A stretch of 15,731 bases of DNA from a virus (IMGVR_UViG_2529292976_000006), one strand, 5' to 3'; counted from the first letter of the stretch, positions 5,769 to 8,532 are shown. The notes: generated by a model from the sequence alone, not told the origin. Program-made: numbers and translations.

Positions 5769-5862
5769 GCTCACAGAGTGATTTGACATCCTTCACGCCT
5801 GAAGAATGTGGAGGATGTCAAAAGCACGTTGGCATCATCATGCCACGTAAAGAGGATTAGTT

Positions 5863-7332
5863 ATGCTTCAAAAGCTAGACGTCGCAGACAGCGTGCGTCG
5901 CGAGCTGTCTCCCCGTACCGCGCGTAAACACAAAGCAGAGTTCGGCCAGTTCATGACGCCTTCTGGCGTGGCCCGTTTTATGGCCTCCTTGTTTCCACCG
6001 AGCACAATGAAAACTTGCCGTCTACTGGACGCAGGCGCTGGTTTAGGCGCACTGTCTTGCGCCTTCCTCGACCGTTGGCTGGTTGGCGAGTTTGGCTTTG
6101 AGTCTGTCGAGGCAACAGCCTACGAAATCGACAAAAAGCTGTGTGGTCACCTTGCGAAGCACTTAACCGGGTACAGGAGAGTGACGCCCCGCATCATCGA
6201 AGGGGATTATATTGAGCTGGCAACCGCCGAAGGTCTACAGGATCGAGGTTATACCCATGCAATACTTAATCCGCCTTACAAGAAGATCAATAGCCAGTCA
6301 GCCCACCGGCAGGCTCTTCGCACTGTCGGTATCGAGACGGTAAATCTGTATTCCGCCTTTGTTGCACTGGCTGTAGGTGAGGTTGCACCTGGCGGGCAGA
6401 TAGTGGCCATAATCCCACGTAGTTTCTGCAACGGACCGTATTACCGTCCGTTCCGTAATTTCATACTTGAGCGGGCAGCAATCCGCCATATTCATTTGTT
6501 CGAATCACGTAGCAAAGCTTTCAGGGATGACGATGTGTTGCAGGAAAATATTATCATCCGCCTGGAGCGTGGAGGCCGTCAGGAGGCTGTTACAGTCACA
6601 ACTTCGACCGATGATAGCTTTTTTGACCTGGTCACCTACGAACACCCATTTGACCAGATTGTGTACCCGGACGATTCGGAGCGGTTTATTCATGTGCCGA
6701 CCACGCTCGAGAAAAGCACCATTGAGTTATCATCTGCCGTACAATGTTCGCTGGCTGATATTGGCGTGAAGGTATCGACCGGACCGATAGTTGATTTCCG
6801 ACTGAAAGCTCATTTGCGCAGCATGCCAGAAGAAGGAACTGTTCCCCTGATCTACCCGAGCCATTTGAGTATGAGTAGCACTGTCTGGCCTGTGGAAGGT
6901 TTGAAGAAACCCAACGCAATCATGCGCAACGACGAGACAGAAAAGTGGCTTTACCCGAACGGTTTTTATTGTGTGGTGCGTCGTTTCTCGTCGAAGGAGG
7001 AAAAGCGCCGAGTGGTAGCAAGCGTCGTTGATCCTGCTACCTTCAGTGAGTATTCAGTGTTGGGATTTGAAAATCACATGAACGTGTTTCATGAGAACAA
7101 ACATGGGTTACCCGAGGCGCTGGCCCGTGGCTTGGCCGTGTTCCTGAACACTACCGCAGTGGATAAGTATTTCCGTCGCTTCAACGGGCATACACAGGTC
7201 AATGCAACCGACCTCAAGATGATTAAGTACCCAAGCCGTGACACTCTGATAGAGCTTGGCAAGTGGGCTATGCAACAAGAAACTCTCACGCAAGAACATA
7301 TTGACGCTAAGCTAGGAGCTCTGACTGCATGA
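5863..7332 (+). CDS. N6-adenine DNA methyltransferase, gamma class (TaqI/Eco57I-like), probable Type II modification subunit
   Basis: 489 aa. Motif X GQFMTP (nt 5944-5961), motif I LLDAGAGLGAL (nt ~6022-6054), motif IV NPPY (nt 6268-6279), in the X-I-IV order of gamma-class amino-methyltransferases. Strong SD AAGAGGA. Noticeably more GC-rich by eye than the flanking phage genes. Confidence 0.8.
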   Translation: MLQKLDVADSVRRELSPRTARKHKAEFGQFMTPSGVARFMASLFPPSTMKTCRLLDAGAGLGALSCAFLDRWLVGEFGFESVEATAYEIDKKLCGHLAKHLTGYRRVTPRIIEGDYIELATAEGLQDRGYTHAILNPPYKKINSQSAHRQALRTVGIETVNLYSAFVALAVGEVAPGGQIVAIIPRSFCNGPYYRPFRNFILERAAIRHIHLFESRSKAFRDDDVLQENIIIRLERGGRQEAVTVTTSTDDSFFDLVTYEHPFDQIVYPDDSERFIHVPTTLEKSTIELSSAVQCSLADIGVKVSTGPIVDFRLKAHLRSMPEEGTVPLIYPSHLSMSSTVWPVEGLKKPNAIMRNDETEKWLYPNGFYCVVRRFSSKEEKRRVVASVVDPATFSEYSVLGFENHMNVFHENKHGLPEALARGLAVFLNTTAVDKYFRRFNGHTQVNATDLKMIKYPSRDTLIELGKWAMQQETLTQEHIDAKLGALTA

Positions 7333-8282
7333 ACAACCAAAATGATTATATTGAGGCCGCTCAGCAAATTATAGCATCCTTAGGCCTGCCCAGAGCGCAG
7401 CAGAATGAGCGTTCTGCTTTGTGTTTGCTGGCACTCCTGAACCTCACACCGGGAAAAGCATGGGCCGACGCGGAAAATCCGCTTGTGGGCATTACACCAA
7501 TCATGAATTGGGTTCGGGAGCACTACGGCAAGGTCTACGCACCCAATACTCGTGAGACATTCCGCCGCCAGTCTATGCATCAGTTCTGCGCTGCTGGAGT
7601 AGCCCTCTACAATCCGGACAAGCCCGATCGCCCAGTGAACAGCCCGAAGGCTGTTTATCAGATCGAACCTGCTGCTCTGTCCATGCTACGCACTTTCGGC
7701 AGCCCGGCATGGCACGATAGCCTTGCAACCTATTTAGCCGAGCGTGAAACGCTGGTTACCCGCTATGCTAAGGAGCGCGAACAGAATCGTATCCCTGTTG
7801 AAATTGCTGCGGGCCAGCAAATAACCCTCAGTCCCGGCGAGCACAGCGAACTTATCCGTGCCATAATAGAGGACTTCGCCCCACGTTTTGCTCCGGGTAG
7901 CGTGCTGGTCTATGCTGGCGACACTGGCGAAAAGTGGGGCTACTTCGACGCTCCACTGCTGGCCGGGCTAGGTGTTGATGTGGATTCACACGGTAAAATG
8001 CCAGATGTGGTGCTACATTTTACTGCGAAAAACTGGCTGCTACTGGTTGAGTCTGTCACCAGTCATGGACCGGTTGATGGGAAGCGGCATGCTGAGCTTG
8101 CCAGGCTGTTTGCCGGATCAACAGCCGGACTTGTCTATGTGACCGCTTTTCCAAATCGCTCCATCATGGGGCGATATCTTGGTGAAATCGCATGGGAAAC
8201 AGAGGTATGGGTGGCTGATGCACCTTCTCATCTTATTCACTTCAACGGAGTGCGATTTCTTGGCCCCTACTCTACTGAATGA
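7329..8282 (+). CDS. Probable Type II restriction endonuclease (BsuBI/PstI-like) partnered with the upstream methyltransferase
   Basis: 317 aa ORF overlapping the methyltransferase stop by 4 nt (ATGA), i.e. translationally coupled. Gene sizes (489 and 317 aa) are close to M.PstI/M.BsuBI and PstI/BsuBI as recalled. Family assignment is by context and overall impression, not verified. Confidence 0.55.
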   Translation: MNNQNDYIEAAQQIIASLGLPRAQQNERSALCLLALLNLTPGKAWADAENPLVGITPIMNWVREHYGKVYAPNTRETFRRQSMHQFCAAGVALYNPDKPDRPVNSPKAVYQIEPAALSMLRTFGSPAWHDSLATYLAERETLVTRYAKEREQNRIPVEIAAGQQITLSPGEHSELIRAIIEDFAPRFAPGSVLVYAGDTGEKWGYFDAPLLAGLGVDVDSHGKMPDVVLHFTAKNWLLLVESVTSHGPVDGKRHAELARLFAGSTAGLVYVTAFPNRSIMGRYLGEIAWETEVWVADAPSHLIHFNGVRFLGPYSTE

Positions 8283-8301
8283 GAACAGGACCAGATAAAT
8301 A

Positions 8302-8329
8302 GCCCGGCCCATGCGCCGGGTTTTTCTTT
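8302..8329 (+). terminator. Rho-independent terminator closing the cI/methyltransferase/endonuclease transcription unit (tIMM-like)
   Basis: GC stem CCCGGC (8303-8308) / GCCGGG (8315-8320) with a 6 nt loop, followed by TTTTTCTTT, 20 nt after the endonuclease stop. Confidence 0.65.
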
Positions 8330-8532
8330 GCATATCCCCTCCTGTTATCTGTCCCCTTAAAAAATAAATCACTTTAAAAATCAGTTAAGTAATAATTTCT
8401 CGTCCTTAAAAAAGCACCGACGGTATTTACATGAAAATAACCGCAAGTTATATTTATTTCAAGCCAGAAACATCGCGCCCTTACACAGGGCTACATAAAT
8501 CAGTCGTACGGCGCGACTTAACCCGCCGCAAA

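Follow-up and report, generated by a model that had tools for sequence, protein, structure and literature searches.

EcoGIII and the restriction-modification cassette downstream of cI in a PA2-like Stx2a phage

EcoGIII, the Type IIP restriction-modification (R-M) system of the Shiga toxin (Stx) 2a prophage of the Escherichia coli O104:H4 outbreak strain, has already been named, cloned and phenotyped, and published work has noted its place next to cI. Here we compare it with a two-gene cassette directly downstream of cI in IMGVR_UViG_2529292976_000006, a viral DNA sequence of 15,731 nucleotides (nt), referred to below as the window. The biology of EcoGIII is established: it methylates every host CTGCAG, blocks incoming phages and plasmids, and perturbs transcription in outbreak strains. 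In single-molecule real-time methylomes, two lysogens carrying the cassette had N6-methyladenine (m6A) at 100% of CTGCAG sites (PMC6602927), and a cassette-bearing strain had 98.8% CTGCAG methylation versus 0% in a sister strain without the cassette (PMC3893438). The cloned system reduces conjugal plasmid entry about 10^4-fold and leaves adenine-methylated sites uncut (PMC4288162, PMC7736820), and cleavage of unmethylated CTGCAG, blocked by m6A, has been reported for a protein identical to the endonuclease in the window (PMC7736820, PMC3893438, PMC6602927). PMC6602927, citing Fang et al. 2012, summarises earlier work in which EcoGIII is reported to protect against lambda-like phages, to change the expression of about 1900 host genes and to affect growth. 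The position of the system has also been described: to the left of cI, where lambda has rexA-rexB, the left operators (OL) and N, a study of a repressor identical to that of the window reported a BsuBI R-M system and then about 1 kb of apparently non-coding DNA (PMC5977221), and the same point was made for PA2-type phages (PMC4587872).

Identity of the cassette with EcoGIII

We place the probability at about 0.93 that the cassette is the EcoGIII Type IIP R-M system of Oslovirus-type Stx-converting phages, carried here by a Stx2a phage of the PA2/VT2phi_272/phi346 kind; this value includes the mechanism proposed below. The features on which this reading rests are as follows (aa, amino acids).

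5055-5768, plus strand: cI, 237 aa, with HTH_3 and Peptidase_S24 autocleavage domains (Pfam E 8e-10 and 9.5e-29)
5863-7332, plus strand: M (M.EcoGIII), 489 aa, gamma-class N6-adenine DNA methyltransferase
7329-8282, plus strand: R (R.EcoGIII), 317 aa, PstI/BsuBI-family Type IIP restriction endonuclease
8301-8331, plus strand: intrinsic terminator, stem-loop AGCCCGGCCCATGCGCCGGGTT followed by TTTTCTTTG

Along its entire length the window shows about 100% identity to phi346, PA2, VT2phi_272, PA8 and other phages of the genus Oslovirus, and its cI-M-R region (5000-8400) recurs with at least 99% identity in 74 phage records and with 95-99% identity in 24 more, almost all of them Stx-converting. 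Only two nucleotide differences in 3401 nt separate the window from phage P13374 of the O104:H4 outbreak strain, and the cI, M and R proteins are 100% identical to those of P13374, where M is ORF31 and R is ORF30. The match to O104:H4 2011C-3493 reaches 4745 of a maximum 4750 bits across 2572 nt, or nearly 100% nucleotide identity. Gene order, ATGA overlap, spacer and terminator are all the same as in EcoGIII of the O104:H4 Stx2a prophage (phiStx104, P13374 and the 2011C-3493 phage). An independent cross-check is provided by the rare codons listed for EcoGIII from REBASE (endonuclease AUA15/CCC21/AGA22, methyltransferase CUA5/CCC17; PMC6456624), whose positions match the window exactly. Among complete E. 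coli genomes, 139 of 5426 contain the cassette, which is chromosomal in every case.

A first-pass annotation, made from the sequence without tools, had described two open reading frames (ORFs) of 489 and 317 aa on the cI strand with a 4-nt overlap, followed by an intrinsic terminator, and all of this proved accurate. The stop codon TGA of M overlaps the start codon ATG of R in the ATGA at 7329-7332; a Shine-Dalgarno sequence, AAGAGG, lies 7 nt upstream of the M start, and the GGAG of R lies 9 nt upstream of its start. In a consensus scan, a terminator-like hairpin (8301-8322) and its T-run, TTTTCTTTG, were found 19 nt past the R stop. Because both proteins give strong family matches, M and R are not chance ORFs.

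The motifs named in that annotation are present in M in the order X (GQFMTP, residue 28), I (DAGAGLG, residue 56) and IV (NPPY, residue 136), which fits a gamma-class enzyme with a C-terminal target-recognition region. M matches Pfam Eco57I at 37.5 bits (cutoff 25.3) and, along its full length (residues 1-489), the PADLOC MTase_II model PDLC03227 at 822 bits. Its reported target is CTGCAG and its reported product CTGC(m6A)G, a specificity taken from the literature on the identical protein. Another PADLOC Type II methyltransferase model, PDLC03359 (840 positions), is covered by M at positions 12-510 and by R at positions 531-839; because it spans both proteins, fused single-chain M-R relatives of EcoGIII appear to exist.

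The two domains of R each match nearly the whole of their Pfam profile: residues 7-143 correspond to BsuBI_PstI_RE_N (PF17728; E 1.2e-54), an N-terminal helix-turn-helix (HTH) domain, and residues 155-307 to BsuBI_PstI_RE (PF06616; E 4.6e-61), the C-terminal nuclease domain. R also scores 558 bits against the PADLOC REase_II model, and its residues 8-315 align with the solved endonuclease SdaI (PDB 2IXS) at E 1.2e-77. This near full-length alignment includes the GxMPD...E segment; the R segments HGKMPD(226)V and E241-x-VTSHGPV-x-x-KRH align with SdaI and show conservation of at least 97% across 81 homologues, and the classical Lys two residues past the Glu is absent. Following the conserved Glu, SdaI has EAVK whereas EcoGIII and its 81 close homologues have E-x-V-T. 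The recognition site of SdaI is the 8-bp sequence CCTGCAGG. The PstI genes are divergently transcribed, whereas in EcoGIII M precedes R on one strand. PstI and BsuBI are the prototype CTGCAG Type IIP enzymes; both Pfam endonuclease domains of R belong to the same family, and the literature gives the same site.

These matches also settle the fallback offered in the first-pass annotation, in which the 317-aa protein would be an uncharacterised methyltransferase-linked effector and not a PstI-type nuclease. No support for this interpretation of the protein was found, and it is refuted by the full-length matches of both PstI/BsuBI domains and by the SdaI alignment over residues 8-315 (E 1e-77); given in addition the biochemical activity reported for an identical protein (PMC3893438), we consider it extremely improbable. 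The profile searches that the annotation had proposed thus returned Eco57I for M and the BsuBI_PstI_RE families for R, and its call of a Type II, BsuBI/PstI-like R-M system is supported by both Pfam domains of R, by the gamma class of M and by the identity of the proteins with those of the EcoGIII phage. The observation itself is confirmed: working without tools, the reader was correct in seeing a genuine R-M system of the PstI type here and in taking it for lysogenic-conversion cargo of a Stx phage immunity region. Sequence identity together with the published experiments establishes that M methylates, that R cuts, and that lysogens are fully methylated and restricting.

CTGCAG sites were also counted to look for site avoidance, as the first-pass annotation had suggested. 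The window contains one site versus about 3.6 expected (P ~0.12), and the whole of phage PA2 contains 10 versus 15 expected under a model of independent, identically distributed bases or about 25 under a Markov model. Avoidance specific to CTGCAG was rejected as an explanation: in PA2 it is the 16th most depleted of the 64 palindromic hexamers, a rank that points to general palindrome avoidance. All 10 sites in PA2 are located beyond 24.4 kb, and the first 24.4 kb, the integrase-to-immunity arm that includes the cassette, has none versus about 6 expected (P ~0.003, uncorrected for multiple testing).

Transcription and role of M and R in the lysogen

M.EcoGIII methylates the adenine of CTGCAG on both strands, and R.EcoGIII, a PstI/SdaI-like enzyme with an HTH and a nuclease domain, cuts unmethylated CTGCAG; a lysogen therefore destroys phage and plasmid DNA that arrives unmodified, and the host chromosome and the prophage are protected. 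Sequence identity and the published experiments show this much. In the further mechanism that we propose, M and R would most likely be transcribed in the lysogen together with cI, by read-through from pRM across two hairpins in the spacer. In a newly infected naive cell, synthesis of the endonuclease would probably be kept below and behind that of the methylase by the placing of M before R, by the ATGA overlap and by the rare AUA and AGA codons near the start of R. The elements concerned are the following.

4986-5001 (OR1), 5008-5024 (OR2) and 5028-5045 (OR3), between cro and cI: right operators (OR), published footprints with an exact match to the window
5782-5822, plus strand: inverted repeat with 15-nt arms (5782-5796 and 5808-5822) that are 93% complementary, exactly at the junction of the cI flank and the cassette

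The OR1-3 footprints, published for the identical repressor (PMC5977221), map exactly to 4986-5045, and pRM must lie within this region. Between cI and M there is a 94-nt spacer (5769-5862) in which a consensus scan found no sigma-70-like site on the plus strand, in agreement with the claim of the first-pass annotation that this interval lacks a convincing promoter. The RNA of 5760-5880 is predicted to fold at -39 kcal/mol (z = -4.0), and the 5782-5822 stem recurs without change in a phage whose immunity type differs. Lacking a U-run, this hairpin is no canonical intrinsic terminator; it may serve as an attenuator or RNA-stability element, or be a scar left by recombination. In the published supplement on a PA8 lysogen, RNA sequencing gave 97-209 reads per kilobase per million (RPKM) for cI, 49-108 for M and 73-92 for R. 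M and R were thus at about 0.5 times the cI level, which is compatible with read-through but not decisive.

Several points weigh against our account of the locus. The RPKM values in the PA8 lysogen exceed the background seen for silent late genes (20-50 RPKM) by a factor of only about 2; the strong spacer hairpin (z = -4) could stop or process the cI transcript; the homologous pairs at 78 non-phage loci without a nearby cI imply that relatives have a promoter of their own, and a weak one could survive below the threshold of the scan; and the primary EcoGIII results were taken from citing papers, not from the primary paper. Some of the same evidence would fit a cassette that is an autonomous moron, driven independently of pRM by a promoter of its own that lies within the spacer or immediately ahead of it, with the 5782-5822 hairpin terminating or insulating the cI transcript. 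Such an arrangement would agree with the M-R pairs found away from cI, with the arrival of 41 nt of the spacer together with the cassette, with the strong hairpin between cI and M, and with an M level about half that of cI. It is nonetheless rather unlikely, as the plus strand of 5769-5862 has no sigma-70-like site and the hairpin, for want of a U-run, is not a canonical terminator; moreover, the closest relatives have the end of a resolvase gene ahead of M, so that the native promoter was probably located further upstream and lost.

A further question is what the cassette is selected for. Instead of defence, its main role in the lysogen might be to reprogram host gene expression epigenetically through CTGCAG methylation, or to stabilise the prophage post-segregationally as an addiction system. 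The effect on about 1900 host genes and on growth, as given in PMC6602927, would be consistent with this, as would some phages of the group, such as ArgO145, which keep M with a frameshifted R as expected if methylation alone were valuable. However, most records carry an intact R identical to that of the window, which is itself intact, and restriction of phages and plasmids has been demonstrated. A main role other than defence is therefore unlikely, although defence, reprogramming and addiction are not mutually exclusive.

Origin and spread of the cassette

Proteins related to R by 70-91% identity and to M by 54-84% identity occur in Proteobacteria, Chloroflexota, Cyanobacteria, Acidobacteriota and other groups. 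In all 78 informative homologous loci, which represent many phyla, R follows immediately after M and in the same orientation, and none of these loci has a cI homologue nearby. To judge from these comparisons, the M-then-R order is ancestral. In the closest relatives of M, from Serratia nevei (L010, L015 and L048), a serine resolvase gene lies directly upstream; the res-M-R module of L010 is 84% identical in M and 88% identical in R to the phage pair. Nucleotide homology to L010 begins at 5822, 41 nt upstream of M and within the end of the 191-aa resolvase gene, where two further features can be recognised.

5822-5860, plus strand: probable 3' vestige of a serine-recombinase (resolvase) gene, reading KHVGIIMPRKED and a stop (Serratia: ...YKHVGVITPRQ and a stop)
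5831-5844: palindrome GGCATCATCATGCC, within the resolvase vestige

The segment 5822-5860 is probably what is left of a resolvase gene and would mark the left edge of the acquired cassette, although by itself it is too short for significance. Compared with res-M-R modules, the phage retains only about 39 nt of the resolvase gene. SGI1-related genomic islands have likewise been described as having a res gene next to an R-M pair of the BsuBI/PstI kind. The palindrome GGCATCATCATGCC is kept in L010 through paired changes and is extended to 12-bp arms in L009; such compensatory changes conserve it in Serratia and Herbaspirillum relatives. The inverted repeat at 5782-5822 sits exactly at the breakpoint between phage and cassette. 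As a record of where the cassette came from, the vestige, the palindrome and the breakpoint repeat are suggestive only. It is doubtful that the spacer repeat and the vestige palindrome together form an attenuator or processing element that sets the cI:M:R ratio and delays restriction in new lysogens, while recording capture from a res-M-R island. The higher GC content noted in the first-pass annotation holds weakly (M 51.5% and R 53.5%, versus 47.5% in cI, 48.8% in the window, 50.6% in the replication arm and 45.6% in the recombination arm), and is too weak to serve as an argument for recent acquisition. What the present work adds to the published picture is small, namely the probable remnant of a resolvase gene where the cassette begins on the left and, as described below, a nutL resembling that of phi80 without N downstream.

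Between the window and 23 phage records, sharing is confined to the cassette (about 95.5% identity) and the C-terminal half of cI (94% identity from 5357 onward); the cassette is therefore linked to two immunity types. Phages of the second type carry an extra ORF pair after R. In one of them, Lyz12581Vzw (8108-8958), one of the two ORFs has a SocA/Panacea antitoxin domain (E 4.5e-22) and the other, of 126 aa, has no Pfam match; together they may be a toxin-antitoxin pair. Phage ArgO145 has an intact M, whereas the annotation of its R (2430-3384) shows a frameshift and in-frame stops; an orphan CTGCAG methylase may therefore be all that certain members of the group have.

The rexAB slot and the region beyond it

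Past the R terminator, the window resembles an early-leftward control region, with the following elements, which delimit the slot on its right-hand side.

8426-8454, plus strand: candidate early-leftward (pL-like) promoter from a promoter scan, TTTACA-17-TATATT; the assignment to pL is inferred
8534-8542 (boxA, approximate) and 8587-8599 (boxB-like hairpin, approximate), plus strand: phi80-like nutL, by similarity to phi80

Over 8534-8850, identity to phi80 is 95.3%, and the matching phi80 interval runs from the annotated nutL boxA/boxB to just upstream of N. With nutL homology and a promoter-like site past the terminator, the slot has a lambda-like layout, in which cI is followed by cargo, a terminator and the early-leftward control region; as a positional analogy this is sound. 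The comparison with the rexAB slot drawn in the first-pass annotation therefore agrees with synteny, and had already been stated in print (PMC5977221). Like rexA and rexB, M and R are directly downstream of cI, on the cI strand and ahead of the early-leftward control region, the terminator after R being positionally equivalent to that after rexB, and the role, lysogen-expressed exclusion of other phages, is also alike. The resemblance does not extend to sequence or mechanism: Rex is an abortive-infection pair whereas EcoGIII is a Type II R-M system, and Pfam comparison of M and R gave only methyltransferase and PstI-family nuclease matches, with no homology to RexA or RexB. The window further differs from lambda in that OL operators and an N gene are not recognisable. 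When the three published OR sequences were matched across the window in search of OL, the best agreement was only 12 of 16 positions, and comparing the OR region with the post-R region by k-mers likewise gave nothing. The nutL of the window has no N gene downstream and is apparently an orphan nut site; the phage has been reported to lack N (PMC5977221). Other lambdoid phages have different cargo in the same slot, such as the stk kinase module in a 933W-type relative and gene 40A in phi80.

To the right of the slot, the flank in P13374 is about 0.8 kb longer and contains two related Rha/anti-repressor-type ORFs (11229-12833), as opposed to one recombinant ORF in the window (9143-9790). This looks like a deletion between two repeats in the window or a duplication in P13374. 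Just upstream of the single ORF of the window, two RNAs are predicted in tandem on the plus strand, each by an Rfam match above the gathering score: the Hfq-binding small RNA isrK (8901-8976; 58.7 bits) and the C4 antisense RNA (9001-9088; 77.1 bits). A promoter-like site lies ahead of isrK at 8866-8894, and a terminator lies inside its 3' end at 8956-8971.

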